This document shows, one piece after another, positions 951-34,145 of a stretch of DNA of 64,000 nt; within the stretch, counting starts at the first letter, position 1; each line of letters begins with the position of its first letter. This DNA is from a virus. Under the pieces are notes generated by a model. The model did not search any database. It had not been told where the DNA came from and was given only the letters and a program-made list of their open reading frames with translations. The position numbers and the translations under genes are program-made. The stretch lies in UHGV virus genome UHGV-1378516; one strand, written 5' to 3'.

Positions 951-954
951 AAAT

Positions 955-1047
955 TGGAGGAAGATACCAGACTTGAACTGGTACACCGATTTCTCAGCTA
1001 CTGGCAGTTTAGCAAACTGCTCCCTTACCTTTTAGGGTTAATCTTCC
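955..1047 (-). tRNA. tRNA-Ser (anticodon GCT), type II, CCA encoded
   Basis: Acceptor GGAAGAT/ATCTTCC, T-arm ACCAGTTCAAGTCTGGT, anticodon stem GCAGT/ACTGC with loop TTGCTAA, long variable arm. Confidence 0.6.
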
Positions 1048-1049
1048 AT

Positions 1050-1784: not shown

Positions 1785-1802
1785 TAAGCACCTTTGAAAT
1801 TG

Positions 1803-1877
1803 GTAGTCCAGTGGGATTTGAACCCTCTTCTCATGTTTTTCAGACACGCGCTTTAACCATATAAGCTACTTGGACTA
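1803..1877 (-). tRNA. tRNA-Phe (anticodon GAA)
   Basis: Acceptor TAGTCCA/TGGACTA, T-loop TTCAAAT, anticodon loop CTGAAAA. Confidence 0.65.
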
Positions 1878-1885
1878 TAAATTGG

Positions 1886-1958
1886 GGTGACCTACGGGAT
1901 TTGAACCCGTATAGACCATGTTCACAGCATGGGTCATTACCATTTATGATAAGGCCAC
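1886..1958 (-). tRNA. tRNA-His (anticodon GTG)
   Basis: Acceptor GTGGCCT/AGGTCAC, T-arm ACGGGTTCAAATCCCGT, anticodon stem CCATG/CATGG loop CTGTGAA. Confidence 0.7.
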
Positions 1959-1992
1959 ATTTAAGGACTCTCGTAAGAATCCTTAGAAGTGG

Positions 1993-2065
1993 CAGCGGCA
2001 TAAGGATTTGAACCTTAATAGGACAGCTTCAGAGACTGTTGCATTGCCAGTTATGCTATACCGCT
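1993..2065 (-). tRNA. tRNA-Gln (anticodon CTG)
   Basis: Acceptor AGCGGTA/TGCCGCT, T-arm TAAGGTTCAAATCCTTA, anticodon loop CTCTGAA. Confidence 0.6.
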
Positions 2066-2072
2066 AAATTTG

Positions 2073-2142
2073 GTACTCCATATCGGATTCGAACCGATAC
2101 ATAACACAGATTTTAAGTCTGGCCTCTCTGCCAATTGGAGTA
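2073..2142 (-). tRNA. tRNA-like gene, short (about 68-70 nt), anticodon loop CTTAAAA (UAA, nominally Leu); non-canonical D-arm
   Basis: T-arm ATCGGTTCGAATCCGAT and acceptor pairing present; D-arm does not fold canonically. Confidence 0.4.
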
Positions 2143-2154
2143 ATGGAGCATTGG

Positions 2155-2227
2155 CGGGGGATGTTGGAATTGAACCAACTTCTTCGATTTCAAAGACCGA
2201 GGTTTTAACCTTGTAAACTAATCCCCT
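2155..2227 (-). tRNA. tRNA-Gln (anticodon TTG)
   Basis: T-arm GTTGGTTCAATTCCAAC, acceptor AGGGGAT/ATCCCCC (1-72 mismatch), anticodon loop CTTTGAA. Confidence 0.55.
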
Positions 2228-2235
2228 TTAAATCT

Positions 2236-2793
2236 TTACTTTCTTAGTGGATGAATAAAGAATGCCAACATAACTCTTTCCCTTGAGAATGCTCTTTCTT
2301 CTGGGACAACGCTTTTAAGTTTCCACCCAACATAAATTCTCCAGTAAAATTGTTTACCAAAGATTTTGATTGATGGCACAAAAGCGAATAACCCCCAAGC
2401 ATTACTGTTCCACATTAGGAGATAACCAGTTTGATTATCTTCAGGGTTAGAACTTACGTTGATATTACCTTTCCACTTAGTAACGTCTTTTACATCTCTT
2501 CCTAACACATGGTAAGAGAAGTTATAAGCTTTGTTTCTCCAGAGCCATCCAACTCTCTGCATGTAGACACCAAGCTTACCAATCTTTCTAATCTTAGCCC
2601 ATCGTTTGATATGACCTGCATCACCATCAATTGGGTTGTCATAAGTCTCCATCCATCTGAACCCGAAAGGCAAGTGTCCTTTCTTCTCACTGTAGAATGG
2701 AACTACAAAAGGTGCTAAGATAACTGCTAAGATTGCTGCAAATGGCTCTAACAAAGCTAAGAAAATCCATGAAGCATACTTTAAGTATCTCAT
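2236..2793 (-). CDS. hypothetical membrane protein embedded in tRNA cluster
   Basis: ORF track 185 aa; hydrophobic N-terminus IFLALLEPFAAILAVILAPFVVPF. Confidence 0.5.
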   Translation of the reverse strand: MRYLKYASWIFLALLEPFAAILAVILAPFVVPFYSEKKGHLPFGFRWMETYDNPIDGDAGHIKRWAKIRKIGKLGVYMQRVGWLWRNKAYNFSYHVLGRDVKDVTKWKGNINVSSNPEDNQTGYLLMWNSNAWGLFAFVPSIKIFGKQFYWRIYVGWKLKSVVPEERAFSRERVMLAFFIHPLRK

Positions 2794-3032
2794 TGTCTAA
2801 TCCTCGTAAGGAGGTAAATGTTATTATTAGTTTCTAAACCTTCTGGTAAAACTGTCTCAAAAATAACACTCTTCAGATGTCTACCACCAAAACAATCACG
2901 TATAAATCTTTCTACTCTAGCGGGGTCACATAAGTATCCCACTTTTAAGAAAATGTGGTGTTCAACACCAATGACCCTGACAAACTCAATACTCTCACAG
3001 TTTTCATGTTCAACTACTGTTAATGTTTGCAT
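2790..3032 (-). CDS. hypothetical protein (80 aa)
   Basis: ORF track; 4-nt overlap with downstream gene suggests translational coupling. Confidence 0.4.
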   Translation of the reverse strand: MQTLTVVEHENCESIEFVRVIGVEHHIFLKVGYLCDPARVERFIRDCFGGRHLKSVIFETVLPEGLETNNNIYLLTRIRQ

Positions 3033-3052
3033 AGTATCACCTTTTTATCTGG

Positions 3053-3125
3053 CGCAGGATAAGGGATTCGAACCCCTATTAACAGCTTCGTAGACTGTTG
3101 CTCTTTCCATTTGAACTAATCCTGC
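3053..3125 (-). tRNA. tRNA-Arg (anticodon ACG)
   Basis: Perfect acceptor GCAGGAT/ATCCTGC, T-loop TTCGAAT, anticodon loop CTACGAA. Confidence 0.7.
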
Positions 3126-3133
3126 AAAATTGG

Positions 3134-3208
3134 TGTTCCAAGACGGATTCGAACCGTCACTAATACAAGGTTTGAGCTTGCATCCTCTGCCAATTGGGAT
3201 ACTGGAAC
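3134..3208 (-). tRNA. tRNA with anticodon CAA (nominally Leu) but short type-I architecture
   Basis: Acceptor GTTCCAG/TTGGAAC, T-arm GACGGTTCGAATCCGTC, anticodon loop CTCAAAC, discriminator A; no long variable arm. Confidence 0.5.
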
Positions 3209-3212
3209 ATGG

Positions 3213-3284
3213 TACTCACTAAAGGACTTGAACCTTTTTCTTCATCTTGTAAGGGTGATGTTTTACCATATAAACTAAGCGAGT
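3213..3284 (-). tRNA. tRNA-Val (anticodon TAC)
   Basis: Acceptor ACTCGCT/AGTGAGT (one GU), T-arm AAAGGTTCAAGTCCTTT, anticodon loop CTTACAA. Confidence 0.55.
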
Positions 3285-3288
3285 ATGA

Positions 3289-3376
3289 AAGAGGTCTGGA
3301 GTTGTGCCGCTAACTCAACTCCGTGGAATTTGTTACGGTCTTCAGTTGACTCAAAGCGGTCTTTCACTTGACCTCT
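3289..3376 (-). ncRNA. tRNA-sized structured RNA candidate without canonical T-loop
   Basis: 7-bp terminal pairing AGAGGTC/GACCTCT spaced 88 nt apart, internal 7-bp hairpin GGAGTTG...CAACTCC; no TTCRANT T-loop. Confidence 0.25.
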
Positions 3377-3383
3377 GAATTGG

Positions 3384-3456
3384 TGCTCCCACAAGGACTC
3401 GAACCCTGATAAGTTGCTTACAAGGCAACCGTAATAACCAATTATACGATAGGAGC
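3384..3456 (-). tRNA. tRNA-Thr (anticodon TGT)
   Basis: Acceptor GCTCCTA/TGGGAGC, T-arm CAGGGTTCGAGTCCTTG, anticodon stem GTTGC/GCAAC loop CTTGTAA. Confidence 0.65.
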
Positions 3457-3466
3457 ATTAATTTGG

Positions 3467-3538
3467 AGCATCCAGAGGGAATCGAACCCTCAACCTCAGT
3501 TTGGAAGACTGTAATTTTCCCGTTTAAACTATGGATGC
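3467..3538 (-). tRNA. tRNA-Gly (anticodon TCC)
   Basis: Perfect acceptor GCATCCA/TGGATGC, T-arm GAGGGTTCGATTCCCTC, anticodon loop CTTCCAA. Confidence 0.65.
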
Positions 3539-3547
3539 ACTAATTGG

Positions 3548-3620
3548 TGGAGTCACCGAGAATTGAACTCGGTTCCCAAGTTTGCAAAACTCGAATTTTA
3601 ACCATATAAACTATGACCCC
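3548..3620 (-). tRNA. tRNA-Ala (anticodon TGC)
   Basis: Acceptor GGGGTCA/TGACTCC with G3-U70, T-arm CCGAGTTCAATTCTCGG, anticodon loop TTTGCAA. Confidence 0.7.
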
Positions 3621-3629
3621 AATGTCTGG

Positions 3630-3702
3630 TACAGGTGGAGGGAATTGAACCCATCGTCTTACTGATTAAGAGTCAGCCGCATAACCATTTTGCTACACCT
3701 GC
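3630..3702 (-). tRNA. tRNA-Lys (anticodon CTT)
   Basis: Acceptor GCAGGTG/CACCTGT, T-loop TTCAATT, anticodon stem GCTGA/TCAGT loop CTCTTAA. Confidence 0.55.
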
Positions 3703-3712
3703 ATTAATTTGG

Positions 3713-3788
3713 TAGGAGACAAGGGATTCGAACCCTCAAGCATCTCGTTCTAAGCGAGATAGGTCTACCAAGTTGCCGTCAATCTCCC
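3713..3788 (-). tRNA. tRNA with anticodon TAG (nominally Leu), type-I length
   Basis: Acceptor GGGAGAT/GTCTCCT (two GU), T-arm GAGGGTTCGAATCCCTT, perfectly palindromic anticodon arm ATCTCG-CTTAGAA-CGAGAT. Confidence 0.5.
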
Positions 3789-4044
3789 ATTAAATCTTTT
3801 TAGAGAACTTCTAAGAACCTGAGCAACAAGGTTCCACAACAAGCGACTAATAACCTTAGAAGCCCTCTAAAAAGACCTAAATAGGTCTTTGCATAGTCTT
3901 GTTTAATCCGGTGACTAGAACCTTTGGAGAGCTTGATATTATCTCTTCTCCGTGACACCTACTAGGTGCTTTGACAGTGTACGACAATACACGAGGGATA
4001 AACCGACAATGCGAACAAGCATGGACGGAGTAAATCTTATTAGG

Positions 4045-4132
4045 CGGTAAGTAAAGGAGTCGAACCCTCACCGTATCTCTACAGTGGCAACAGTTTTCAA
4101 GACTGTTTGGCTGCCATTAGCCGCTACCTACC
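4045..4132 (-). tRNA. tRNA-Ser (anticodon TGA), type II
   Basis: Acceptor GGTAGGT/ACTTACC, T-loop TTCGACT, anticodon stem ACAGT/ACTGT loop CTTGAAA, long variable arm. Confidence 0.6.
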
Positions 4133-4148
4133 CCTAATAAGACTTTGG

Positions 4149-4228
4149 CATGGGACGGAGGAGTTGAACCCCTTTGAAACGGTTTTGGAGGCCGTTGCTC
4201 ATGCCTTAGAGTCTTAACATCGTCCCAT
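4149..4228 (-). tRNA. tRNA-like gene (80 nt), anticodon undetermined (possible 9-nt loop containing CCA)
   Basis: Perfect acceptor ATGGGAC/GTCCCAT and T-arm AGGGGTTCAACTCCTCC; interior does not fold into canonical D/anticodon arms. Confidence 0.4.
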
Positions 4229-4373
4229 ATTATAATTCGAAGCTTACCCTGTTATCTCAACACTGTCAAGCTTCTTCTCAGATTATTTACATGTTCTGGA
4301 AAACATGAGATACAGACCACCTCCCTACAGGAAGACCCGCTAAGGCCGTCTAAGTAATCTGCTAACTATTTGG

Positions 4374-4447
4374 TACACCCTACAGGATTCGAACCTGTAA
4401 CTAACGATTTAGAAGACCGTTGCTCTATCCAATTGAACTAAGGGTGC
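4374..4447 (-). tRNA. tRNA-Arg (anticodon TCT)
   Basis: Acceptor GCACCCT/AGGGTGT, D-arm GTTCAATTGGATAGAGC, T-loop TTCGAAT, anticodon loop CTTCTAA. Confidence 0.65.
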
Positions 4448-4696
4448 ATTATCTTTAAAGACTCTCTTAGAAAGCCCTTAAAGATGCCCACCTTATTAAT
4501 CATACCGTGGGCGAGTACGCCAAATTCTTTGATGAGGGATTGGAAGACCTCACTGGTGTTTAGCCTATCAAGCTACTGCCAGAAAAACATTGTCGTTTGC
4601 ATTTATTTTAAATTTGCAAAATAGACGCTACGCAACGAAAACTAAGGTTACTATAAAGTAGTCACATCTCAATGTCAACAACTTTATTGAAATTGG

Positions 4697-4769
4697 TACT
4701 GGTAGGTGGAATCGAACCACCGATGTTCCCTTATCAGGGGAGTGTTATAACCTTCTTAACTATACCAGC
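4697..4769 (-). tRNA. tRNA-Ile (anticodon GAT)
   Basis: Acceptor GCTGGTA/TACCAGT, T-arm GGTGGTTCGATTCCACC, anticodon loop CTGATAA. Confidence 0.65.
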
Positions 4770-4773
4770 TTGG

Positions 4774-4847
4774 AGGTTCAGATGGGAATCGAACCCACAT
4801 TCATAGGGCTTATGAGACCCTTGCATTACCTTATCTGCGACTGAACC
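4774..4847 (-). tRNA. tRNA-Met (anticodon CAT; initiator-like GGG/CCC in anticodon stem)
   Basis: Perfect acceptor GGTTCAG/CTGAACC, T-loop TTCGATT, anticodon stem AGGGT/GCCCT loop CTCATAA. Confidence 0.6.
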
Positions 4848-4854
4848 ATATTGG

Positions 4855-4927
4855 TAGAAGTGGAGGGATTCGAACCCATCGCCTGTCAGATTAAAAGTCT
4901 GCCGCATCACCATTCTGCTACACTTCC
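4855..4927 (-). tRNA. tRNA-Lys (anticodon TTT)
   Basis: Acceptor GGAAGTG/CACTTCT, T-loop TTCGAAT, anticodon loop CTTTTAA. Confidence 0.6.
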
Positions 4928-5126
4928 ATTAAATTATCTTTGTAGATAAGCTACCCAGACTTGCTTAAGGTCTGTAGCGATGTGCCTTTTGGGTTTAAAT
5001 CTAGAATTTACCCATTCACCCTTTGTGGTCGCATACTCACAGGTAAGCTTAATAACTTATCTACAAAGATAATTACCAGACCGTTGTTTATCATCTTAAG
5101 TGCTACCATTACACCAACTCGACATC

Positions 5127-5172
5127 TGCCGAGTGAAGGAATCGAACCTTCGCCTTTTCTTTACCGGAGAAA
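5127..5172 (-). pseudogene. tRNA remnant: 3' half (T-arm + acceptor 3' strand) plus an anticodon-arm-like hairpin (loop CCGGTAA), no matching 5' acceptor strand
   Basis: T-arm GAAGGTTCGATTCCTTC present; no complementary 5' acceptor strand within 100 nt. Confidence 0.3.
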
Positions 5173-5358
5173 TAGATTGTTTAAGTTTTGCTGTAAACGG
5201 TCTTCTGTAAATTTGTTGAGCCAGACCAAGTTTTAAATTTTCAAAATTAAATTGGCTTGAAATTTCATACGTTCTTGCTGTATTTGGTCTTCTGCTCCTT
5301 TAAAGAATACTCGTAAGAACTCTTTAAGGGAGGGGCTAAATAGCCCTCTCAAAATTGG

Positions 5359-5433
5359 CGGTTACGAAGGGATTTGAACCCTCATCATCTCCCGTGACAG
5401 GGGAGTATTTTAACCAGATTAAACTACATAACC
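5359..5433 (-). tRNA. tRNA-Asp (anticodon GTC)
   Basis: Acceptor GGTTATG/CGTAACC, T-loop TTCAAAT, anticodon stem CTCCC/GGGAG loop CTGTCAC. Confidence 0.65.
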
Positions 5434-5441
5434 TTTATTGG

Positions 5442-5526
5442 TGTGCCGTGTAGGAGTCGAACCTACCGAGTCTCAATGACAAGGGATTTACAGTCCCCAC
5501 CGCTACCATCTACGGGATAACGACAC
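5442..5526 (-). tRNA. tRNA-Tyr (anticodon GTA), type II
   Basis: Acceptor GTGTCGT/ACGGCAC, T-arm GTAGGTTCGACTCCTAC, anticodon loop CTGTAAA, long variable arm. Confidence 0.6.
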
Positions 5527-5598
5527 ATTTAATTTCTATTCAGGCTAAGGACTTGCACCTTACAAATCGGTGAGCAATCGCTTCTCTCCTAAATTTGG

Positions 5599-5672
5599 CG
5601 GTTAGTCAGGGATTCGAACCCTGTGCCATTCGCTTAACAGGCGACCGCACATACCTTATGTGCTTCCTAACC
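5599..5672 (-). tRNA. tRNA-Asn (anticodon GTT)
   Basis: T-arm CAGGGTTCGAATCCCTG, acceptor GGTTAGG/ACTAACC, anticodon loop CTGTTAA. Confidence 0.6.
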
Positions 5673-5759
5673 ATGTTTAGTATTACCAGACCGTATCTTT
5701 CAATTTTTTCCGCTAAAAATTTAATAAATATTGCTGTAAACGGTCTTCTGTAAATTTGG

Positions 5760-5833
5760 AGGCGGGTGCAGGAGTCGAACCTGCCGATACCATGCTAATG
5801 AGACATGTGAGACGCCCTTTCTCTATACCCGCA
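5760..5833 (-). tRNA. tRNA-Met (anticodon CAT), 1-72 mismatch
   Basis: T-arm GCAGGTTCGACTCCTGC, acceptor TGCGGGT/ACCCGCC, anticodon stem CATGT/GCATG loop CTCATTA. Confidence 0.55.
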
Positions 5834-5927
5834 ATTCTTAATGACCAGACCAAATCTCTTCTTTGTCCGATTTACCTTCAGATGAATAAGATTAAGTTTG
5901 CTGTAATTGGTCTTCTGTCAAAACTGG

Positions 5928-6002
5928 CGTTCCAGAAGGGATTTGAACCCTCAAATATCCACTTTGAAAGAGTGGTGACTTTACCATTTTGTCTACTGGA
6001 AC
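5928..6002 (-). tRNA. tRNA-Glu (anticodon TTC)
   Basis: Perfect acceptor GTTCCAG/CTGGAAC, T-loop TTCAAAT, anticodon stem CCACT/AGTGG loop CTTTCAA. Confidence 0.65.
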
Positions 6003-6012
6003 ATTAATTTGG

Positions 6013-6086
6013 TCTCTGTTGGAGGACTTGAACCTCCGGCCTTACCGCCCCAAACGGAACGCTCTACCAAGCTGAGCTAAACAGAG
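6013..6086 (-). tRNA. tRNA-Pro (anticodon TGG)
   Basis: Perfect acceptor CTCTGTT/AACAGAG, canonical D-arm GCTCAGCTTGGTAGAGC, T-arm GGAGGTTCAAGTCCTCC, anticodon loop TTTGGGG. Confidence 0.65.
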
Positions 6087-6251: not shown

Positions 6252-7667
6252 TTACCAGATGTAACGGTCAATCATTACTGCTTTGAGCATTACGCTGATT
6301 GGGTCAAACTTCTCACCACCAAGCAGAGCTTTTAAAGTGGCTGGAGAGAAACCAGATACCATTGCTACACCGTTATCCTTAACGGACACTTCGCAAGTAC
6401 CATTACGGTTTGCTAAGTACCAGAATACCAGTTGTGGCATCTCATATCCAGCTTTTTTGTACTTGCTCTGAATTGCTTCAAAGTTTGTACGACCGTTAGC
6501 TCCATCAACCTGATTGAACTCCATATCAGAGAATATGATAAGCTTACTTGGCATATCTTTCTGAGTCAAGTTGTTTCTCTTACCTATTTCAAGAATGCGG
6601 TCAAAAGCTGCTTGTAAGTTAGTTGAACCATATTCAACATGACGCATTACCTGACGATGACGGTTTCGTAAATCACCACTCAGTTCGATGAAGTGAGGGT
6701 TTGTTGAATAAACCATCAACTCATTCTTAAAGCAACCTGTATTGCGTTCTGCTACATACAAGGCAAGTGATACACCAATATCAAGGGCGGTGATTGAACC
6801 AAGATTCACCCAAGACATTGAGCTTGAAACATCAGTCATACACAAGATGTTTTCACCTTCTGCCATCCAGTTTGGTAGTGCTTTCCACTGCTCATTGGCA
6901 ACATCTGCATTACCATGCTTGATAGACTTAATCACATCGTATGGGTAAACAGCACCAGCATTAATCTTAGCCTCACCCTTTGATAAGGACTCAATGTAAG
7001 CTTTGTAGCGTTCTCCATCTTTACGGTTAAACAGTTTTTGGTAACGTGCAGCAGCAAGTGAAGGAATCTTACTGTAGTCAATCTTACCAAACTCATTAGC
7101 AGAGATTTTTTGCTCAACTGTATCAGATAGTGCAGACAACAGTGTGCGGTACTCTTTCTCACTCAAGTTGGCAAACTTGCAGAAACGTTTTACAAACTGC
7201 TTATGACGTGGTTTGACTCGTGGTAACCACTTAGCTGCCAAACCTGCTGTTGCAGGGTCTAGTAATGCTGCTTCTAAATGTTTGAAGGCATCTGTCTCGA
7301 AACGAGTACCTACGAAGATTTTGAAGTCATCAAAACGGCCAAGTTCTGCAATCTTATCCATAATACGAAGAACCTGCGTAGACTCTAAAACTTTGTCTTC
7401 AATTGCTTGAAGCAAAACAGTTCTGAAGGCTTTACGCTCACCCATACCTTCTCGTACATCTCGCATATGAAGCAAAATACGAACTGCAACATCAACATCC
7501 TCACGCAAAGCTTTGTAGAACAGGTCTGGTAAGATTTCTACGTTGCTACGGCTTGAACCAGCAGCTTTGTAAAAGTCTACAAGAGCAGACATTGATGAAG
7601 TATGGTTTACAGCACCATTTTCAGTTCGACCTGCATGAAGGTGCGCATGTTTAAATAATTCGCTCAT
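6252..7667 (-). CDS. von Willebrand factor A (vWA) domain protein, DUF2828-like
   Basis: 471-aa ORF; MIDAS-type DxSxS motif (MTDVSSSM) followed by a vWA-like C-terminal region. Confidence 0.5.
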   Translation of the reverse strand: MSELFKHAHLHAGRTENGAVNHTSSMSALVDFYKAAGSSRSNVEILPDLFYKALREDVDVAVRILLHMRDVREGMGERKAFRTVLLQAIEDKVLESTQVLRIMDKIAELGRFDDFKIFVGTRFETDAFKHLEAALLDPATAGLAAKWLPRVKPRHKQFVKRFCKFANLSEKEYRTLLSALSDTVEQKISANEFGKIDYSKIPSLAAARYQKLFNRKDGERYKAYIESLSKGEAKINAGAVYPYDVIKSIKHGNADVANEQWKALPNWMAEGENILCMTDVSSSMSWVNLGSITALDIGVSLALYVAERNTGCFKNELMVYSTNPHFIELSGDLRNRHRQVMRHVEYGSTNLQAAFDRILEIGKRNNLTQKDMPSKLIIFSDMEFNQVDGANGRTNFEAIQSKYKKAGYEMPQLVFWYLANRNGTCEVSVKDNGVAMVSGFSPATLKALLGGEKFDPISVMLKAVMIDRYIW

Positions 7668-9377: not shown

Positions 9378-9749
9378 ATGAAAGCTAAGAGTGCAAAAGA
9401 CTTTTATTGCTTCCTACAATCCTATATCAATTCCGTGCAAAATGGTGAAAGGTACAACCTTAATGATGTTATCCCAACACCTTTGACATGGAGACTCAGT
9501 AAATGGCCTGAAGAAGATATTACACCAACAATCGAACAATGCACCTACAAACCCGAAATAAATATTCCAGACTCTGAGAATCTATTATATCCAATGTTCC
9601 ATATTGTTGGTCTTGGAAGATTCCTTATGGATATCCAGTATGTAATTGGTAAAGGTTATAAGGTTAAAGGTATTGTTGTTGGTGATGTATCTCCGCATCA
9701 CAAAGGTTATTTTAGACTAAACGCACATTTAGAGGCTAAAAAGAAATGA
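9378..9749 (+). CDS. hypothetical protein, paralogue of the N-terminal domain of the following Ig-like protein
   Basis: Shares motifs with 9746-11131 N-terminus (...FxxxxxxNVxxGxRY..., WPEE/WPEAD, DxxYxIG...). Confidence 0.5.
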   Translation: MKAKSAKDFYCFLQSYINSVQNGERYNLNDVIPTPLTWRLSKWPEEDITPTIEQCTYKPEINIPDSENLLYPMFHIVGLGRFLMDIQYVIGKGYKVKGIVVGDVSPHHKGYFRLNAHLEAKKK

Positions 9750-11131
9750 TTAAAGCAAAGACTTACCCAGACTTCAAAGAGTTTGTGAAGGGCTTCATTG
9801 CAAATGTAAAGGCTGGTAAGAGATATGATTTTAGAACATATCAAGAGGCTATTTTACCACTCACCTATAGTTCATATTGGCCTGAAGCTGATATTGCAGA
9901 AGTTGAGGAGTTTGACTACAAACCAGACTACAAAGTCCCATTTAGCGATGAGTTGCTTTACAGCGTTGGTGCTCAAATGAGAACTTCTGACTTCTTCATG
10001 GACTTACAATATACAATTATCAATGGTAAAGACGTTGATACAGTTTATTGTGAATGGCTGGCAAGAGTTAAACCGTTCTCAATGTTGAATGCTAAGTTGA
10101 AGGATGCTATCAAGCCACCAGCAATCACTCAGCAACCAACCAATCAAACAGTAAATGAAGGTGGTACACTTAACCTAAGCGTTATTGCAACTAATGCCAC
10201 AGGATATCAATGGAAAAAAGATGGTGAGGATATCACTAGCGCCACATCTGCAACCTACACAAAACAGTCTGTAGTACCTTCTGATGCAGGTTCATACACT
10301 TGCGTTGTATCTGGAGAGGCTGGAACAAGCGTTACCTCAGATGCGGCAACAGTTACTGTTAACGCACTACCTGTGATTACACAGCAACCTTCTAGCCAGA
10401 CCATCAATGAGGGTGGAAACATCAGCTTGGAAGTGACTGCAACGGGTGCAACTGGTTACCAGTGGAAGAAAGATGGCTCTGACATTCCTTCGGCTACAGA
10501 GGCTACCTATAGCAAGTCTGGTGCTCTGCCAGCAGATGCAGGTTCATACACTTGCGTCGTAACAGGGGCAGGTGGTTCTGTTACTTCTAGCCCTGCAACT
10601 GTCACGGTAAATGCTTTACCAGTTATTACCAAGCAGCCAACCAATCAGGTAGTTAATGAGGGTAGCTCTTTGACACTGAGTGTTGAGGCGACAGGTGCGG
10701 AAGGTTACCAGTGGAAAAAGGACGATGTGAACATCCCTAGTGCAACTGGTGCAACTTACACGAAAGCTAACGCAGTTCCTGACGATGCTGGTTCATATAC
10801 CTGTGTAGTTACTGGTGCTGGTGGCACAACAGTCACATCTAATGCTGCAACGGTTACTGTGAATGCACTTCCTGTAATCACTCAACAGCCAATCAATCAA
10901 GAAATCACTGAAGGTGAGACCTTAACGCTGAATGTTGTGGCAACAGGTGCAACAGGCTATCAGTGGAAGAAGGGTGAGGAAAACATCCCAGACGCAACTA
11001 CTGCAACTTACACCAAAGAAGGTGCAACCACTGCTGATTCAGGAAGCTACACTTGTGTAGTGACTGGCGCAGGTGGCTCTGTAACATCTAATGCGGCAAC
11101 AGTTACAGTTAACCCAGCAGGGGAGGCATAA
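9746..11131 (+). CDS. Ig-like (I-set/Big-like) repeat protein, 4 tandem ~82-aa domains; Hoc-like decoration or adhesin candidate
   Basis: Repeated unit P(V/A)ITQQPxNQxxNEGxxLxLxVxATGATGYQWKKDGxDIxSATxATYTKxxxxxxDAGSYTCVVTGAGGxxTSxxATVTVN. Confidence 0.65.
   Translation: MIKAKTYPDFKEFVKGFIANVKAGKRYDFRTYQEAILPLTYSSYWPEADIAEVEEFDYKPDYKVPFSDELLYSVGAQMRTSDFFMDLQYTIINGKDVDTVYCEWLARVKPFSMLNAKLKDAIKPPAITQQPTNQTVNEGGTLNLSVIATNATGYQWKKDGEDITSATSATYTKQSVVPSDAGSYTCVVSGEAGTSVTSDAATVTVNALPVITQQPSSQTINEGGNISLEVTATGATGYQWKKDGSDIPSATEATYSKSGALPADAGSYTCVVTGAGGSVTSSPATVTVNALPVITKQPTNQVVNEGSSLTLSVEATGAEGYQWKKDDVNIPSATGATYTKANAVPDDAGSYTCVVTGAGGTTVTSNAATVTVNALPVITQQPINQEITEGETLTLNVVATGATGYQWKKGEENIPDATTATYTKEGATTADSGSYTCVVTGAGGSVTSNAATVTVNPAGEA
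10123..11106 (+). repeat. 4 tandem ~246-bp coding repeats (Ig-like domains)
   Basis: Units begin near 10123, 10369, 10615, 10861. Confidence 0.7.
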
Positions 11132-11595
11132 TGCAACTCTCACAGAAAGGTTTAGAAGCTATTAAGTTCTTTGAAGGTCTGAAGCTAGAGGCTTACGAAG
11201 ATTCTGCTGGAATCCCAACAATTGGGTATGGGACTATCCGTATTGCTGGTAAGCCTGTTAAGATGGGTATGAGGATTACCGCTGAACAAGCTGAACAGTA
11301 TCTTCTCGCAGATGTTGAAAAGTTCGTTGCAGCAGTGAACAAAGCCGTCAAGGTTCCAACTTCTCAGAATGAGTTTGACGCACTTGTAAGTGAAACATAC
11401 AACATTGGCATCACAGCCATGCAGGACTCTACATTTATCAAGCGCCACAACGATGGTAATAAGGTAGGTTGTGCAGAAGCTATGCAGTGGTGGAACAAGG
11501 TTACAGTCAAAGGTAAGAAGGTCACTTCAAACGGCCTGAAAAACAGACGTAGAATGGAAGCTGACATTTATCTTGACAGTGTATACCCAAAGTAA
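11131..11595 (+). CDS. endolysin, T4-lysozyme-like (GH24) muramidase
   Basis: N-terminal signature EGLKLEAYEDSAGIPTIGYGT matching catalytic Glu/Asp/Thr region of T4 lysozyme; 154 aa. Confidence 0.8.
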   Translation: MQLSQKGLEAIKFFEGLKLEAYEDSAGIPTIGYGTIRIAGKPVKMGMRITAEQAEQYLLADVEKFVAAVNKAVKVPTSQNEFDALVSETYNIGITAMQDSTFIKRHNDGNKVGCAEAMQWWNKVTVKGKKVTSNGLKNRRRMEADIYLDSVYPK

Positions 11596-22248: not shown

Positions 22249-22629
22249 TTATTTAATTTTGAAGATTGTTACATAACCATCACTCCCGATGATTTGTGAT
22301 ACTCCAGCCTTTTCTACTTGATAGCCCATATTTTCAAGATGATAAATAGCATCATCATAACCATATGCGCCACCCTGATAACGTCTCTTATCACATCTTA
22401 TCAGGTTTTTTCCACGTCCAGCAAGTGCATGGAGAATGGTTTTTTCACTTGAAAGAGTGCCATCTAACATGGTTGCCGTGTAATGGTTGATTTTATTCCC
22501 GTTGATATCATACTTGAAATTGAACGAGTGAACAACAATCACATTACCTTTGAAATTTTCATCAAGTGACTTCTCCAGTACGCTACGAAAGTTGTCTTTG
22601 TTGATGAATTTAGGCGCACGATATTTCAT
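22249..22629 (-). CDS. hypothetical protein (126 aa), first gene of the cassette array
   Basis: ORF track. Confidence 0.5.
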   Translation of the reverse strand: MKYRAPKFINKDNFRSVLEKSLDENFKGNVIVVHSFNFKYDINGNKINHYTATMLDGTLSSEKTILHALAGRGKNLIRCDKRRYQGGAYGYDDAIYHLENMGYQVEKAGVSQIIGSDGYVTIFKIK

Positions 22630-22700
22630 TTTCTGAATCTCCTAGTTTAAGGACTTTATTTAGTGTGGAAGGTCATTCCCTCCCCGTTGATGCAAATACT
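22630..22700 (-). repeat. intergenic cassette, variant A (most upstream copy)
   Basis: TTCTGAATCTCCTAGTTTAAGGACTTTATTTAGTGTGGAAGGTCATTCCCTCCCCGTTGATG. Confidence 0.6.
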
Positions 22701-22897
22701 AGATAACCACGTTCAAAGAGTCAAGAAAAATTTTAAAAATATTTTTGACAAAACTGTAATGAAACGGGCGCACACGACTACCACAAAACAGAACACAAAT
22801 CAAGAATTATTTTTCAATCCGCTACAAATTTTTCCCTTGACTTTTGGGGAGAGGGGGAGTAAGAGGGGGAGAGGGGTTGGTCTGGCTCTCTATAAAA

Positions 22898-23110
22898 ACC
22901 TACCTGCACGATTCTAAAATGATTTTTCTTGCCCGACCTGAGCGGGGTCTGCACGTTTTGAAAATGAAAAATCTCTTTGGAGATTACCTGCACAGTTTGA
23001 AAATGAATTTCCTCTTTGGAGTTCAAAATTTCCTCTACAGATTTCTCTATAGAAATATACCTGCACAATTCTGAAATGAAAAAGCCCTCCTTACCTGAAA
23101 AATTTACCAG
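22898..23110. repeat. four direct repeats CCTGCACNNTTYTRAAATGA(W) with CTCTTTGGAG-like spacers, preceded by a G-rich tract (22850-22890)
   Basis: Copies at about 22898, 22946, 22988, 23061. Confidence 0.5.
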
Positions 23111-23152
23111 ATAAGAAAGGCTTAGTCTATTGTGAATATCCTACGAAGTTTC

Positions 23153-23938
23153 TTAGTTCTTTGCGTCTAAGAAGGTAACTTCTGGCGAAGAGAAAACTGT
23201 CTCAATATCCTCATCAGTTCTTGCATAGATGTAAGTGTCTGCATCACTGCCAAATGTTACTGCAATCCTGTGATTGCTCTTCGACAGGTGGGTAACTAGA
23301 GCGTTACTTAGAGACATCTTTTCAACCGGAGGGTTACTTTGATGTATCTTACCTTTTCTTCGTCTGAAGAGGGTAACTGCATTATCCGTGAACACAACTA
23401 CACCTGCGAAGTATTCTGGTTCACAGTAGTTCTTCCAACCTGAGCGTAACTTGTGGTACATCTCTCCTTCATAGACATATAGATAAACATCTACACTCTT
23501 CATTGCCTGATTGATGATAACTGTGACGGCTTGAGGGTCCAACCCACCGATACCTGCACCAATCATAGGTAAACCAACTTTCTTCAACTGATTAACTTCA
23601 CAGTATCTGTTAAGCTGTTTCAAAGATGACTCTAAAGCACTGTATCGGGCATCTTTACCAGTCTTAAGCTGAGTGTAAAGGTTAGCTATACGGCCTTGTT
23701 TTACACGTGCTACAGAGAAATTACCCAGTAAATTTTCACAGGGTTTGTGTCCTATACCACCTGCATATAGATAAACTTCTGTATCGGTCTCATATGCTTT
23801 TGGGTAAAGTTTAGAAATCTTGTCAGCGATACCTGCACCCATTAAATTCATACAGTTGCAACCGTGACCGATGATGTCAAACTTACCTTTATCAAATGCG
23901 GAAAAGATATCACCGTTGATAATTTTTACAATACCCAT
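23153..23938 (-). CDS. macro-domain-like protein (putative ADP-ribose binding/processing) with C-terminal extension
   Basis: N-terminal GDIF...DIIGHGCNCMNLMGAGIA and later VGLPMIGAGIGGLD resemble the GDIT...VNAAN...GGGV and ...FPAISTGVYGYP elements of macro domains (by-eye alignment to E. coli YmdB). Confidence 0.45.
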   Translation of the reverse strand: MGIVKIINGDIFSAFDKGKFDIIGHGCNCMNLMGAGIADKISKLYPKAYETDTEVYLYAGGIGHKPCENLLGNFSVARVKQGRIANLYTQLKTGKDARYSALESSLKQLNRYCEVNQLKKVGLPMIGAGIGGLDPQAVTVIINQAMKSVDVYLYVYEGEMYHKLRSGWKNYCEPEYFAGVVVFTDNAVTLFRRRKGKIHQSNPPVEKMSLSNALVTHLSKSNHRIAVTFGSDADTYIYARTDEDIETVFSSPEVTFLDAKN

Positions 23939-23939: not shown

Positions 23940-24140
23940 CTAATAATGCTCCCAACGTTGCATGTCTTCGGATGGTTTTACACGGTTACCCTCATGGTCT
24001 ACATAACCTGCACCACAACCTTCACAGATAACTGGCATAGCTGAACCAGCTTCAAACTCTTCTTTGGTGAAGAGACCTTTCAAGTCCCCTGTATCAACAC
24101 CAAAATGTTCTATTGCACACTTCTTGCAGAAATCAGCCAT
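23940..24140 (-). CDS. small zinc-ribbon protein
   Basis: CKKC ... CEGC Cys pairs in 66 aa. Confidence 0.45.
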   Translation of the reverse strand: MADFCKKCAIEHFGVDTGDLKGLFTKEEFEAGSAMPVICEGCGAGYVDHEGNRVKPSEDMQRWEHY

Positions 24141-25492: not shown

Positions 25493-25972
25493 TTAACCGA
25501 GGACTTTAGCAAGGATATTTGCAGCCATCGAAGAAGCTTTTGCAGCAGCAACTACGCCAGCTTTGACAGTGCTATCCTTAATAGCAGATACCGTTGCAGC
25601 ATCAGTAAAGAGATAAGTGATTGTTTTGGAACCACTTGTAAAGGAAAGCATAAGAGTAGTTTCCAGATTGAAAGAGCGATACGGAGCACCTTCTTTAACG
25701 ATACCTTCAGCACCTAACTCTGAAGCCTTACCCATATCATAGATAGTCATCAGGTTTTCTTTGTGTGCAGTCGTTGAACCAACACCTTTTACGTGCTTCT
25801 TAACGTTCAACAATGCACGATATTCACGAATGCTGCCATCAGCTTTTACATTAACAGCACGGAAAATTTTACCTTCAAAGTTACCTTGAATCATTTTACG
25901 AACTACTTCAGATTTGTTTGCCGTATCATCCAGTGCTACCGTAATGATATTGTTCATAAGTTTTTCTCTCAA
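25493..25972 (-). CDS. hypothetical protein (159 aa)
   Basis: ORF track. Confidence 0.45.
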   Translation of the reverse strand: MREKLMNNIITVALDDTANKSEVVRKMIQGNFEGKIFRAVNVKADGSIREYRALLNVKKHVKGVGSTTAHKENLMTIYDMGKASELGAEGIVKEGAPYRSFNLETTLMLSFTSGSKTITYLFTDAATVSAIKDSTVKAGVVAAAKASSMAANILAKVLG

Positions 25973-26664
25973 TGTTTAACTAACATGGTTTTAATGTGTG
26001 GAAGGATTCTGTTTACCTTCTGAACATTCTTCTCTGTATCTTCTATAAAGCATACTATATTAAAGTAAGGAAGAATGCAAGACTGAATCATCCTCACTTT
26101 CAAACTTTCTGCACTTATAGAGTTAGTTCCAAAACCACGCATAAAAAGCAAGTAATCATGCTCTATATTGTGCCTTAAAAACATCTCAGTAGGTATTCTC
26201 TGAGATTCACCTCTTGCTGTCAAGAGTCCAACTGCTGCATGATTTGCAATTGCATCAATAATGTTGAAAACATATGTTGGTTTTGCTCTTACAGAATCAA
26301 GAAGATTAGTGTACTGTGAGAATGACCCATCAGTCAATTCCGTTGAGCAATCTTCGTGATTAAAATTTGTAAGAACACCATCAATATCTGCTAAGATGAG
26401 GTTACCTTTTTCTACAAGGTCTTTATTGACTATCACTAAACTATCACGCCTTACACCTATAGCTTGTCCAGTCTCTTTGTCCACAACGTTCACAATGGGT
26501 TCTGATGTGTGGAACTCTTCAAGTGAACATACAACCTCTCTTGCAGTGTCTTCAAAATCTCTGCACTGTTCTGGAGTCCATACACAGGAATCAAGACCTA
26601 ACTCATGAGGATGCAAGTCATAAGCGTGGCACAGGACTTCATCAGACTTTCTTAATTTTTTCAT
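25969..26664 (-). CDS. HAD-superfamily phosphatase-like protein (possible nucleotidase)
   Basis: Motif I-like LILADIDGVLT and downstream GLLTAR / IEDTEKN elements. Confidence 0.4.
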   Translation of the reverse strand: MKKLRKSDEVLCHAYDLHPHELGLDSCVWTPEQCRDFEDTAREVVCSLEEFHTSEPIVNVVDKETGQAIGVRRDSLVIVNKDLVEKGNLILADIDGVLTNFNHEDCSTELTDGSFSQYTNLLDSVRAKPTYVFNIIDAIANHAAVGLLTARGESQRIPTEMFLRHNIEHDYLLFMRGFGTNSISAESLKVRMIQSCILPYFNIVCFIEDTEKNVQKVNRILPHIKTMLVKH

Positions 26665-31421: not shown

Positions 31422-33203
31422 TTAAAGTTGCTTGTCAATATTATTTCGAATATCACCAAGAGTTGTGTAGCCGAACTGCTCAGAGTCGCTAAAGACTAAA
31501 CGTAAAGCACAAGCTGGATGCTCAAGTGCATCTGCAAAACTCTGGAATCCATAGCCATCTACAGCTTTCAGGTTCTCACCATCCCACATAGGGGCTACAC
31601 CACCAAAAGCAGACTTCTTAATACCACTGTCTGTTTTAGGGTCTTTTGCAAGCATAATCTCTTTACCACCAATACTTGCAAGAGTTGCTTTGACAGCAAA
31701 TGCAAAGGTGTCACGAGTCATGTACTGGTAAGTGTAAGAACCTACACCAAACACTACGTTAGAGCTTGCAAAACCCATTTCATACAAACGCTTCAGGATT
31801 TCGTTTGCACGTTCCAACGTGATAGAGTCACCATAGATAAGGCCAATGTGCTCATCCAGTACCTTAAACCCTTTAGAGTTGATAGTTCCTCCAAAGATGT
31901 TATACAGTGTCTTGATAGCTCCATCAATCTCCGCTACAGGACGTGTTACAACGTTTGCAGAACCAACCATATAAGCATTTTTCAACATCACTGTATCAGC
32001 AACTTCAAAGTCTTCTCTGTCAACAACCATTTCGTAACCTTCTGACAGTAGCCATCCAGCAATACCATAATTGATGTTTTCAAGCTTCATGTTCAGAACA
32101 GCATTCAGCATTGTGTCGCTGGCTTCCAGCTTACTTAGGTGTTCGTAATAAGCCTTTTTAGCACACTCTAAATGGATTGCTTTGTATCCTGTGACAATAT
32201 GTACAGGGTCTCCAGAATCAGGACGAATTACCAGTTTGCCATCACGTTCCATAATCTCTTTACGGAGTTCTGGCAATATGACTGATACAGTTCTCCAGAA
32301 GTTATAAGTATCTGAAACAACACTTGCAATACCAGTTGGGTAAGTTTCTGTTAAGAAACGACGGAAGGTTTGTAACTCACCTTTAAAGCGTCTTTCTTCT
32401 TCAATCAACTCGTTACCACCTTCCCAAGCAATGTTTGCACACATTACAGAATGTTCAGTGGCTGGTACAGAACTACCAATATCAGAGATTTGGTAGGACT
32501 GTCCATAGATGCGTTTAGCTGTATACACAGCAGGGAAGCTATCAGTCCCTTTAAAGCTTGTTAAGTGACCTACAGCGTTAAATGCGTCATCAGTAAAGCC
32601 GGACATACCACGCATAGCAAAATCATGGCACTGATAAGGTAAATGTAAGTCATTGTCACAAGTAAGGTCAGCCCACTTCTTACAGATGCGTTTGTAATGC
32701 AATGCAATAGTTGCAATGGTGCAAGCCTTCCAAATTTCAGCAGAGAAAGCATCTTCCAGATAACCTGCTACCCAATGAAAACCTGAAACAGTGTTCTGAA
32801 AGACAATCATCGGGACACGCATTGGAACAACTGTGCCTTCTTCTACAGCGTATACTTCAACTGGTAGATAACCTAAGTCGTGAAGTGCTTCCCAATGCTC
32901 TCGACCGATAGCATCTTTACCCAGAACACCATTCATGACTTCTAAGATTTCATCAATGGCTTCTTTTTTATCACGTTCAAAGAAAGTGGCATTCCAGTGG
33001 TCTATCAAGTAATCTTTAACAAAACGTTGAATACCAAAAGCCACTACACCGTCAATTGCTAAAGGGCTGTTAAACCATTTATCACTACGTGGTGTTAGGT
33101 TGAACATCAAGTACTCTGTTGCGCTAGGATACTGGTAAACATGACCAGATTTGTAAGCATCTGCATTTAAACCTGCTGGTACTGCATAAAGTGATTTAGT
33201 CAT
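31422..33203 (-). CDS. NAMPT-family phosphoribosyltransferase; best interpreted as Namat (nicotinamide ADP-ribose transferase) of NARP1
   Basis: 593-aa ORF; N-terminus MTKSLYAVPAGLNADAYKSGHVYQYP typical of NAMPT/NadV family; adjacent Prs-family gene. Confidence 0.7.
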   Translation of the reverse strand: MTKSLYAVPAGLNADAYKSGHVYQYPSATEYLMFNLTPRSDKWFNSPLAIDGVVAFGIQRFVKDYLIDHWNATFFERDKKEAIDEILEVMNGVLGKDAIGREHWEALHDLGYLPVEVYAVEEGTVVPMRVPMIVFQNTVSGFHWVAGYLEDAFSAEIWKACTIATIALHYKRICKKWADLTCDNDLHLPYQCHDFAMRGMSGFTDDAFNAVGHLTSFKGTDSFPAVYTAKRIYGQSYQISDIGSSVPATEHSVMCANIAWEGGNELIEEERRFKGELQTFRRFLTETYPTGIASVVSDTYNFWRTVSVILPELRKEIMERDGKLVIRPDSGDPVHIVTGYKAIHLECAKKAYYEHLSKLEASDTMLNAVLNMKLENINYGIAGWLLSEGYEMVVDREDFEVADTVMLKNAYMVGSANVVTRPVAEIDGAIKTLYNIFGGTINSKGFKVLDEHIGLIYGDSITLERANEILKRLYEMGFASSNVVFGVGSYTYQYMTRDTFAFAVKATLASIGGKEIMLAKDPKTDSGIKKSAFGGVAPMWDGENLKAVDGYGFQSFADALEHPACALRLVFSDSEQFGYTTLGDIRNNIDKQL

Positions 33204-33248
33204 CTTTTAATCTCTCTCAAAATGGGGCTTGGAAGCCCCTATAAAGTT

Positions 33249-34145
33249 TTAATCAAGGTTTGCTACAGTAACTTGGCTATAATGTGTTAAGCCACGGTCT
33301 TTAGCTTCCCCTAAAGAGTTTGTAGTGTAGATATGGTCAATGCCATTGTCAAGCAAGTTTTCAACATCTTTAGAGAAGATACCATGTGTTACATAGAGTT
33401 CCACACGTTTTGCACCTGCTTCACGAAGATGCTTAGCTGCTTCTATGAAGGTTCGACCACCATCACAGATATCATCCAGAATCATGACGGTTTTATCTGT
33501 CAAATCAACATCATCAAGGATTCGCATACCAGTAATTTCACCAGTCTTAAGGTTACGCACCTTAGACATTGTGATATATGGTTTATCCACCTCTTTAGCG
33601 GTCTCTGCAACCTTCTTAGCAGCACCTGCATCTGGGGCTACTAAGTAATCAACCAGTGGGTCATTTGCATAGTGGACTGCAATTTCCTTTTGAGGAATAC
33701 TCTGGAAGCAGTTAAACAGGTTATCTGGAACGTAACTGTGAGGGTCAACTGCACAGACTGCACCAAATCCCATTGCATTTACCTGTTTAGCAAAAACCTT
33801 CAAAGCTGCTGCGTCGCCTTTAAACATGTGACGGTCATAACGTGCATTTGGTAAGTAGTAAAAGATGACAGTCTTTAAAGCATAATCATGAGGAATTAAA
33901 TCATCAATTGCTTCTTTAGCAAGTGCCACAGCAAACAATGTATCCTTATCATAACCTTTTACAATCATAATCACATTGTTTATGGATGATGCTGCATAAG
34001 CAGTGAAATCAACAAACTCTGGCGAAAAGTGTCCACCAATCTCACCAGAAGGAAATTGGATGATGTTAAACTCCTCTTCATGAGTTCCTTTAGTTGGTGA
34101 ATGAACTGTAACACGGATAGATGTTTTCATAGTTTTCTCTCTCAA
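33249..34145 (-). CDS. Prs-family (ribose-phosphate pyrophosphokinase-like) enzyme; best interpreted as Adps (ADP-ribose pyrophosphate synthetase) of NARP1
   Basis: PRPP-synthetase signatures YYLPNARYDRHMF and VMILDDICDGGRTF...VTHGIFS; no HxGH nucleotidyltransferase motif (so not NMNAT). Confidence 0.7.
   Translation of the reverse strand: MREKTMKTSIRVTVHSPTKGTHEEEFNIIQFPSGEIGGHFSPEFVDFTAYAASSINNVIMIVKGYDKDTLFAVALAKEAIDDLIPHDYALKTVIFYYLPNARYDRHMFKGDAAALKVFAKQVNAMGFGAVCAVDPHSYVPDNLFNCFQSIPQKEIAVHYANDPLVDYLVAPDAGAAKKVAETAKEVDKPYITMSKVRNLKTGEITGMRILDDVDLTDKTVMILDDICDGGRTFIEAAKHLREAGAKRVELYVTHGIFSKDVENLLDNGIDHIYTTNSLGEAKDRGLTHYSQVTVANLD

Follow-up and report, generated by a model that had tools for sequence, protein, structure and literature searches.

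A macro-domain protein with a lineage-specific C-terminal domain in a Felix O1-like phage genome: a candidate two-domain counter-defence enzyme

Two counter-defence roles have been published for the family of phage macro-domain proteins that includes the subject of this report, a 261-aa protein encoded on the minus strand of a 64,000-nt stretch (hereafter, the window) of the virus genome UHGV-1378516. In phage T4, a transposon screen on DarTG2 gave the tk.4 gene as its only hit, and clean deletion of tk.4 sensitises T4 to this system; the protein was named AdfM, 'anti-DarT factor macrodomain', and its DNA de-ADP-ribosylation activity was inferred by the authors from genetics (HIDEN-SEQ, 10.1101/2025.11.20.689424). 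The second role is that of Adpp, a Poa1p-like macro protein whose gene is part of the NARP1 operon in 15% of the phages that carry NARP1, which in vitro dephosphorylates ADP-ribose-1''-phosphate (ADPR-1''-P), the product of NAD+ phosphorolysis by aRES, to ADP-ribose (ADPR), thus letting Adps and Namat rebuild NAD+; Adpp is required for NARP1 to overcome aRES, and inactivating any one of these three genes abolished the anti-aRES activity (10.64898/2026.01.28.702374). The NARP1 pathway was defined on genes 79-80 of phage Bas63 (JohannRWettstein). PhiKZ gp104, also called AdfM, is truly DarG-like and removes DarT2 ADP-ribose from DNA in vitro, and the N23A substitution lowers its activity (PMC13309987).

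The protein analysed here consists of a macro domain and a lineage-specific C-terminal domain, and is best explained as a two-domain counter-defence enzyme of Felix O1-like phages. According to the reading we prefer, made by analogy with Adpp and given a probability of roughly 40%, the macro domain would bind the ADPR moiety between its MGAGIA and IGAGIGG loops and hydrolyse the group attached to C1'' of the distal ribose, converting ADPR-1''-P into ADPR and inorganic phosphate. The released ADPR would be the substrate for the phage's own Adps and Namat, and NAD+ could be rebuilt even while the RES-type defence (aRES) phosphorolyses it. The same chemistry could strip DNA of DarT2-type ADP-ribose, the activity inferred for T4 Tk.4, and the two roles are not mutually exclusive. 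The sequence-only reading of this gene had proposed reversal of host ADP-ribosylation or the processing of ADPR derivatives, which would fit the activities attributed to both homologues.

The macro-domain assignment, made earlier from the sequence, was borne out by profile and structure comparisons. A Pfam scan of the whole protein revealed a single family, Macro PF01661 (E = 1.3e-7, 32 bits versus a gathering (GA) threshold of 22), with aa 25-141 aligned to positions 2-117 of the 118-position model. A family profile built from 19 full-length relatives, with identities from 96% down to 32%, matched in the PDB TARG1/OARD1 (E = 4.7e-11), the DarG proteins of M. tuberculosis (3.5e-9) and T. aquaticus (1.4e-7), and Poa1p (6e-5). 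The AlphaFold2 (AF2) model of the full-length protein, obtained with a predicted local distance difference test score (pLDDT) of 86 and a predicted template modelling score (pTM) of 0.85, yielded 223 PDB matches at E<=0.001 in a Foldseek search; among the 50 matches listed, all were macro domains or macro-derived designs, and TARG1 (template modelling score, TM, 0.81), DarG (0.77) and Poa1p (0.73) appeared at or near the top. Residues 1-157 are thus a genuine macro domain with a predicted three-layer alpha/beta/alpha fold, and no non-macro fold was among the matches listed. The motifs on which the earlier assignment had relied are all present in the open reading frame (ORF), namely GDIF (aa 9-12), DIIGHGCNC (aa 21-29), MGAGIA (aa 33-38) and VGLPMIGAGIGGLD (aa 121-134); the strand, absent from that reading, is the minus one. 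Membership in the MacroD type was rejected, since the protein lacks N-x(6)-GGG-V and a NAAN-type loop 1, the motif here being HGCNCMNLMGAGIA; MacroD-like and viral Mac1 chains gave sequence E-values of only about 1e-3 and TM scores below those of TARG1 and DarG. A relationship to NADAR, a comparison suggested by the sequence-only reading, was likewise rejected, since neither Pfam (E<=10) nor NCBIfam (E<=1) gave a match to a NADAR family.

At the level of phage protein families, the profile of PHROG 335 ('phosphatase') matches the protein over aa 1-260 with E = 7e-113, and the same profile detects T4 Tk.4 (5e-65) and AG74 gp177 (5e-51), the latter located within an Adps-macro-Namat operon and nearly identical to Adpp of Vibrio phage Gary. 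These matches place the gene in a Poa1p-like phage macro family, PHROG 335, together with Tk.4 and Adpp. In BLAST comparisons the macro domain scored 82 bits with Tk.4, 75 bits with the NARP1-neighbour macro protein of Pseudomonas phage PaP1 and 52 bits with Adpp of Gary (52-75 bits for NARP1-neighbour macro proteins overall), and Tk.4 and Adpp of Gary scored 78 bits with each other. The Tk.4, Adpp and present lineages are therefore roughly equidistant, and the substrate is not assignable from sequence alone; a choice between Adpp-like and AdfM-like functions on this basis was rejected, because the scores are too close.

It is possible, if somewhat doubtful, that the protein is an AdfM-like DNA de-ADP-ribosylase, which would remove DarT2-type ADP-ribose from thymidines of phage single-stranded DNA, as proposed for Tk.4; its C-terminal domain might then assist by binding toxin or replication machinery, much as the second domain of DarG binds DarT. 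Among characterised homologues the closest is Tk.4 (34-35% identity, E = 3e-24, with HGCNC, NLYTQ and P.IGAGIG in common), loss of which sensitises T4 to DarTG2, the top NCBIfam match is antitoxin_DarG NF048014 (E = 4.7e-13), DarG macrodomains are among the top fold matches, N28 corresponds to the Asn whose mutation reduces the activity of PhiKZ AdfM, and a fast-evolving, non-basic extra domain would fit a protein-binding role. However, the protein has Gln where DarG, TARG1 and PhiKZ AdfM have their catalytic Lys, the evidence on Tk.4 is genetic only, and the C-terminal domain has no significant fold match; the NF048014 score is 49 bits versus an equivalog cut-off of 250, and the alignment covers only the macro part (model positions 4-153 of 338), with the DarG C-terminal part (154-338) unmatched. 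Equivalence to DarG itself was rejected on account of this score and of the Gln found where DarG and PhiKZ gp104 have TK.

Conserved residues were examined in the 19 full-length relatives and in a MAFFT alignment with T4 Tk.4, Adpp of Gary, other NARP1-neighbour macro proteins, BT1257, TARG1, two DarG macrodomains and PhiKZ gp104. Among the relatives, the loop-1 motif H25-A38 is invariant, as are both glycine-rich loops, M33-G-A-G-I-A38 and I126-G-A-G-I-G-G132, the invariant positions of loop 2 being P124, G127-I130 and G132-D134. H25, N28, C29, T89 and Q90 are invariant as well and are aligned with Tk.4 and Adpp, and the signature of the family, H-x-x-N-C in loop 1 plus [GT]-Q ending the central strand, is present. 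H-x-x-N-C followed by MG.GIA is common to Tk.4 (AHGCNC), Adpp (AHQCNC) and Poa1p (IHSCNC), and GHGCNC is no degenerate VNAAN but the usual signature of loop 1 in the Poa1p/TARG1-like class. The earlier suggestion that divergent catalytic motifs could mean an unusual activity was thus not upheld: such motifs are what the Poa1p-like/ALC1-like class typically has, and VNAAN, which belongs to the MacroD type, was the wrong yardstick. An orthologous 260-aa 'phosphatase' of Erwinia phage vEam_W_25 (Kolesnikvirus; locus L007, 11998-12780) reads GQGCNC in place of GHGCNC, and its C-terminal domain has diverged past detection by tblastn.

H25 is aligned with H24 of Adpp, and H24A is listed as an Adpp mutation in the primer table of the Adpp preprint (10.64898/2026.01.28.702374). 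The counterparts of N28 are N23 of PhiKZ AdfM and the Asn of DarG, while Q90 takes the place of K84 in TARG1 ('LITK') and of the Lys in DarG 'PTK', and G131 that of D125 in TARG1; loop 2, which in macro domains serves to bind the distal ribose and the diphosphate, is matched by PRIGCGL in TARG1, PLIGCGLAGGDW in Adpp and PPLGAGNGGL in DarG. H25, N28 and Q90 would accordingly lie at positions that are catalytic or mutation-sensitive in Adpp, PhiKZ AdfM/DarG and TARG1. The catalytic dyad of TARG1 is reportedly Lys84/Asp125 (Sharifi et al. 2013) and the catalytic Lys in FPTK of T. aquaticus DarG is reportedly K80 (Jankevicius et al. 2016). TARG1-like Lys/Asp catalysis was rejected for the present protein, which has Q90 and G131 at the dyad positions. 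Q90 is the one real departure from TARG1 and DarG and, because it is invariant in the family and present in Tk.4 and in the biochemically active Adpp, it marks the subfamily and does not signal inactivity. The lack of the dyad, together with the extra domain of unassigned function and the fact that some macro domains are binders only, could also be accounted for by a non-catalytic ADPR binder, acting as a sponge or sensor for ADPR-derived molecules or docking to ADP-ribosylated targets while the C-terminal domain acts. Such a role is very improbable, as H25 and N28, which are mutation-sensitive in active relatives, and the Gln of active Adpp are retained in all 19 relatives down to 32% identity.

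The ADPR-salvaging pair noticed earlier from the sequence is real: a phosphoribosyl pyrophosphate (PRPP)-synthetase-like ORF and a NAPRTase/NAMPT-like ORF, representing the NARP1 genes Adps and Namat, lie about 7.5-10 kb upstream of the macro gene on the same strand, and are separated from it by rIIA, rIIB, an SLT-like gene, a HAD-type 'polynucleotide kinase' gene, spanin genes and small ORFs. The same order, Adps-Namat-rIIA-rIIB-...-HAD-...-macro plus C-terminal domain, was observed in Kolesnikvirus and recurs in metagenomic relatives whose macro proteins are 32-35% identical; in the only metagenomic locus with a 10-kb flank (macro protein 33% identical), the order is Namat-rIIA-rIIB-...-macro plus C-terminal domain, with Adps beyond the sequence obtained. 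The combination of NARP1 and the macro gene was found in every Ounavirinae lineage examined, and in the phage collection the NARP1 pair is present in 257 records and the full-length macro protein in 258. Bas63, the phage of the original NARP1 genes, is presumably also a Felixounavirus. In many Felixounavirus relatives (hits H80, H83, H85, H87 and others) the Adps/Namat region matched in two pieces and an HNH homing endonuclease is annotated; the corresponding region of the window (31422-34145) has no HNH endonuclease insertion.

Hydrolysis of ADPR-1''-P is favoured on three grounds, namely the presence of NARP1, the conserved arrangement and the occurrence of aRES systems in enterobacterial hosts; they have been found in E. 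coli, Klebsiella and Enterobacter, so the selective pressure is present in these hosts. Several points weigh against this reading. The macro gene is neither in nor next to the NARP1 operon, with rIIA, rIIB and about ten other ORFs in between, and has its own terminator; the co-occurrence with NARP1 may reflect just vertical inheritance of core genes. The top-scoring characterised homologue is Tk.4 (82 bits) and not Adpp of Gary (52 bits), and the protein lacks the insertion of 5-7 residues after the conserved Gln that is common to NARP1-associated macro proteins. Since TARG1 and DarG also lack this insertion, its absence is read as ancestral, and only places the protein outside the insertion-bearing group. 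The Kolesnikvirus orthologue has Gln at the H25 position, so the His aligned with Adpp H24 does not occur throughout the subfamily. Because Adpp proteins consist of one domain only, a role as small-molecule phosphatase would leave the C-terminal domain without an obvious task. No Escherichia or Salmonella phage is included in the published list of NARP1-associated macro proteins (Table S1), and the reports on Adpp and Tk.4 are both recent preprints. The supplementary tables of the aRES study make no mention of Bas63, and the HIDEN-SEQ study mentions neither Bas63 nor Felixounavirus in its main text (10.1101/2025.11.20.689424).

The supply of ADPR to NARP1 could also take a different route if the protein hydrolysed immune signals or other ADPR derivatives, such as the cyclic ADPR (cADPR) isomers 2'cADPR/3'cADPR of Thoeris, O-acetyl-ADPR, or ADP-ribose on RNA or protein; it would then disarm signalling or modifying defences and possibly feed NARP1 as well. 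RyDEP, an unrelated phage enzyme inserted in a NARP1 operon, supplies NARP1 with ADPR made from cADPR isomers, which makes 'feeder' enzymes an established theme, and the macro superfamily acts on many 1''/2''-linked ADPR derivatives; an activity of this kind had also been suggested by the sequence-only reading. We nevertheless consider it unlikely, since cleavage of cADPR isomers has been shown for no member of this macro subfamily, the known degraders of Thoeris signals have other folds, and no contextual link to Thoeris countermeasures was seen within the window; degradation of gcADPR signals would be a minority possibility.

The similarity to Poa1p, from which the 'phosphatase' annotation derives, raises another option, namely RNA-repair clean-up as in yeast, where the protein would dephosphorylate ADPR-1''-P formed by Tpt1/KptA-type removal of 2'-phosphate during tRNA repair. 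A HAD phosphatase annotated as 'polynucleotide kinase' is encoded 2 kb upstream, and the phage has 26 tRNA genes. However, a scan of 30 larger window ORFs, a set that omitted eight larger ORFs at 50-63 kb and the genome beyond the window (an estimated ~23 kb, relatives being 85-90 kb long), revealed neither a Tpt1/KptA nor a 2H phosphoesterase nor an RNA ligase domain, and the upstream HAD protein has no kinase-domain hit, which leaves this option with little probability. The HAD-type gene itself (25969-26664, minus strand; PHROG 3970), which bears the kinase label in relatives, keeps its synteny with the macro gene throughout the Ounavirinae examined; for its product in the window Pfam yielded no match at E<=0.001, and its counterparts in distant relatives gave only a weak HAD_PNKP hit. 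Since it has the ILADIDGVLT (DxDG) motif and lacks a kinase-domain hit, the 'polynucleotide kinase' may be a phosphatase only. The tRNA genes, covering most amino acids, occupy positions 875-6086 on the minus strand and are interrupted by two ORFs, DUF7217 (1050-1847) and DUF7338 (2236-2793).

The C-terminal domain comprises about 104 residues, in agreement with the earlier description of a roughly 100-aa extension of unknown fold: it has no significant fold match and no homologues outside the family. It is predicted, both within the full-length model and when modelled alone (pLDDT 80), to consist of an N-terminal helix, six beta-strands and a C-terminal helix, and the high pTM obtained for the full-length protein suggests a fixed packing of this domain on the macro domain. 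Structure comparison gave no significant match, nothing significant was found in Pfam and NCBIfam, and a BFVD search returned nothing besides the family itself. An exhaustive HMMER search of 1.84 billion representative proteins with a profile of 15 C-terminal domain sequences returned 11 hits, of which the true ones are the same macro-plus-domain proteins or their fragments (P0033 and P0038 being fragments of the same gene). Five hits outside the family (P0034, P0035, P0037, P0039 and P0040) were treated as noise because they are multi-repeat proteins; P0039, the one examined, is a PQQ-type beta-propeller. A metagenomic protein of 339 aa, P0027, is a distant macro homologue (35% identity) fused to a different domain, Pfam PF20274; therefore, more than one two-domain architecture exists in the macro subfamily.

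Compared with the macro part, the C-terminal domain has about twice the rate of evolution, with identities of 53% versus 80% in a close relative and 13-20% versus 40-47% in distant ones, and only three of its positions are conserved, P174 and G179 being invariant and Y236 nearly so. Its net charge ranges from -5 to +4 among relatives and is not consistently basic, and nucleic acid binding was rejected on this ground. The fast evolution and the lack of a consistent charge make a non-catalytic binding or targeting module likely, with protein or ligand as likelier partners than nucleic acid. A bolder proposal, which we find rather unlikely, is an undescribed fold with a second, stoichiometric activity, by which the C-terminal domain would bind and inhibit a defence protein of the host, such as an NAD+-using enzyme of DarT2 or RES type, or anchor the macro domain on a macromolecular target. 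If so, the protein would act against defences in two ways, as a counterpart of the two-domain antitoxin DarG that evolved independently, and, together with the unlinked NARP1 genes, could give Felix O1-type phages resistance to NAD+ depletion of both the canonical and the RES type.

The DNA around the gene is 92-94% identical to many Felixounavirus (Felix O1-like) genomes, e.g., KhF2, heid and JK55, which identifies the window at the sequence level as part of a Felixounavirus genome; phage vB_EcoM_IME338 encodes a protein with 98.9% identity. Relatives are labelled in GenBank as 'putative phosphatase', 'phosphatase' or 'macro domain protein', and a note in the KhF2 record already refers to the T4 '17.5 kDa protein'. 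The ORF is a real, well-conserved, expressed-looking gene for which domain-level annotation already exists; its Pfam and PHROG matches and its full-length copies in 258 phage records lie far outside chance expectation. Its ATG lies 1 base past the stop codon of an upstream 66-aa ORF (23940-24140), so the gene is part of a tightly packed minus-strand unit. The terminator hairpin that follows it (RNA fold -26.3 kcal/mol, z = -4.86), an equivalent of which is annotated in the KhF2 record, is strong and lies right after the gene, which is therefore the last of its transcription unit. The sequence-only reading had put the gene at the head of an early/anti-host region; the gene instead closes the unit, and the block of small ORFs comes just downstream of it. 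The coordinates of the main features are given in Table 1.

Table 1. Features of the macro gene and of the NARP1 genes in the window
Feature	Position	Strand	Basis
Macro gene, complete coding sequence (ATG to stop, 261 aa + stop)	23153..23938	-	ORF list and sequence
Macro domain, aa 1-157, Poa1p-like / TARG1-DarG structural class (predicted)	23468..23938	-	Profile, fold, Tk.4 identity
Loop-1 / phosphate-binding motif H25-G-C-N28-C-M-N-L-M-G-A-G-I-A38	23825..23866	-	Alignments with relatives and characterised macro domains
Strand end N86-L-Y-T-Q90	23669..23683	-	HMMER profile alignment to TARG1; MAFFT alignment
Glycine-rich loop-2 motif P124-M-I-G-A-G-I-G-G-L-D134	23537..23569	-	Alignments with TARG1, Adpp and DarG
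C-terminal domain, aa 158-261, beta-rich (predicted)	23156..23467	-	Found fused to this macro domain only
Rho-independent terminator hairpin, directly 3' of the macro stop codon	23082..23123	-	Pattern scan: 17-pair stem + T-run
Namat (nicotinamide ADPR transferase, Nampt-like), second NARP1 enzyme	31422..33203	-	Pfam NAPRTase + NAMPT_N; phrog_448 E = 5e-202
Adps (ADPR-pyrophosphate synthetase, PRPP-synthetase-like), first NARP1 enzyme	33249..34145	-	Pfam Pribosyltran + Pribosyl_synth; phrog_619 E = 9e-97

The 520-bp intergenic gap downstream of the macro gene (22630-23152) contains four copies of a 19-nt motif, TCATTTYMRAAHYGTGCAG, at 22904-23079 on the minus strand, spaced 39-73 nt apart; the motif occurs nowhere else in the 64-kb window, against a chance expectation of 0.06. 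It is kept at the same place in KhF2 (four copies) and Pr103Blw (three copies), and one exact copy is located downstream of the macro gene in the metagenomic relative with a 33% identical macro protein. These repeats may be regulator sites or tandem phage promoters. Downstream of them, at 22696-22895 on the minus strand, lies an unusual C-rich tract, ccaacccctctccccctcttactccccctctcccc, followed by a sigma70-like promoter, TTGACT-17-TAGTAT (22724->22696), ahead of a gene of PHROG 4495 (22249-22629, minus strand). Elsewhere in the window, the tRNA array is neighboured by a gene (6252-7667, minus strand) for a 471-aa protein that has DUF2828 and DUF7788 together with a weak vWA-like hit, and a 461-aa protein with four immunoglobulin-like domains (9746-11131, plus strand) is encoded directly upstream of a phage lysozyme gene (11131-11595, plus strand).

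The macro-domain call is correct yet not new, given the existing GenBank labels and the published roles of the family. Two aspects are not described in the literature searched: the lineage-specific C-terminal domain, and the possibility of a dispersed NARP1-plus-phosphatase pathway in Felix O1-type phages that operon-based surveys have missed. Felix O1-like phages are widely used in typing, biocontrol and therapy of Salmonella and E. coli. If the macro protein is the missing ADPR-1''-P phosphatase, these phages would carry a complete but dispersed NARP1-AP pathway, and operon-based surveys would then under-count such pathways; if it is Tk.4-like, anti-DarTG2 protection would extend to a second large phage group. 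The C-terminal domain, with about 100 aa, is the sole part without precedent and offers a compact target for structural work.

Comparison with the characterised systems shows that the protein shares features with each of them. With T4 Tk.4 it has in common membership in PHROG 335, identity across the whole macro domain, the Gln at the position of the TARG1/DarG catalytic Lys, the lack of the post-Gln insertion, and the status of an early or non-structural phage gene, whereas Tk.4 is a single domain of 155 aa without the C-terminal extension, and its anti-DarTG2 role was established genetically in T4 only. T4 is not known to carry NARP1. Adpp of Vibrio phage Gary (KNV71_gp137) is likewise a Poa1p-like macro protein of PHROG 335, has the conserved His (H24/H25), Asn and Gln, and shares its genome with Adps and Namat; however, the identity is 27%, Adpp lies inside an Adps-Adpp-Namat operon while the present gene is 7.5 kb away in another transcription unit, and the Adpp type is single-domain, with the 5-7-residue insertion and the motif YGQ...GCGLAGGDW. 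Yeast Poa1p (PDB 6LFQ-6LFU), the ADP-ribose 1''-phosphate phosphatase and a cellular tRNA-splicing enzyme, has the same macro fold and the N-terminal IHSCNC...GGGIA element in common with the phage protein, but significant sequence alignment is limited to the first 60 residues, and Poa1p has FTS where the family has YTQ. Human TARG1/OARD1 (PDB 4J5R) is the best PDB match by both profile and fold and has comparable loops (H..., MGAGIA, PRIGCG), although it is only 23% identical and differs at the dyad positions. Finally, the DarG macrodomains and PhiKZ gp104 (PDB 5M31, 5M3E, 5M3I) share the macro fold (TM 0.72-0.77) and the loop-1 Asn, and a counter-defence logic like theirs is plausible here, while the DarG-type signatures NTVN, FPTK(K)HWR and PPLGxGNGGL are absent from the present protein (24-27% identity), and PhiKZ gp104, 24% identical to it, retains the Lys.

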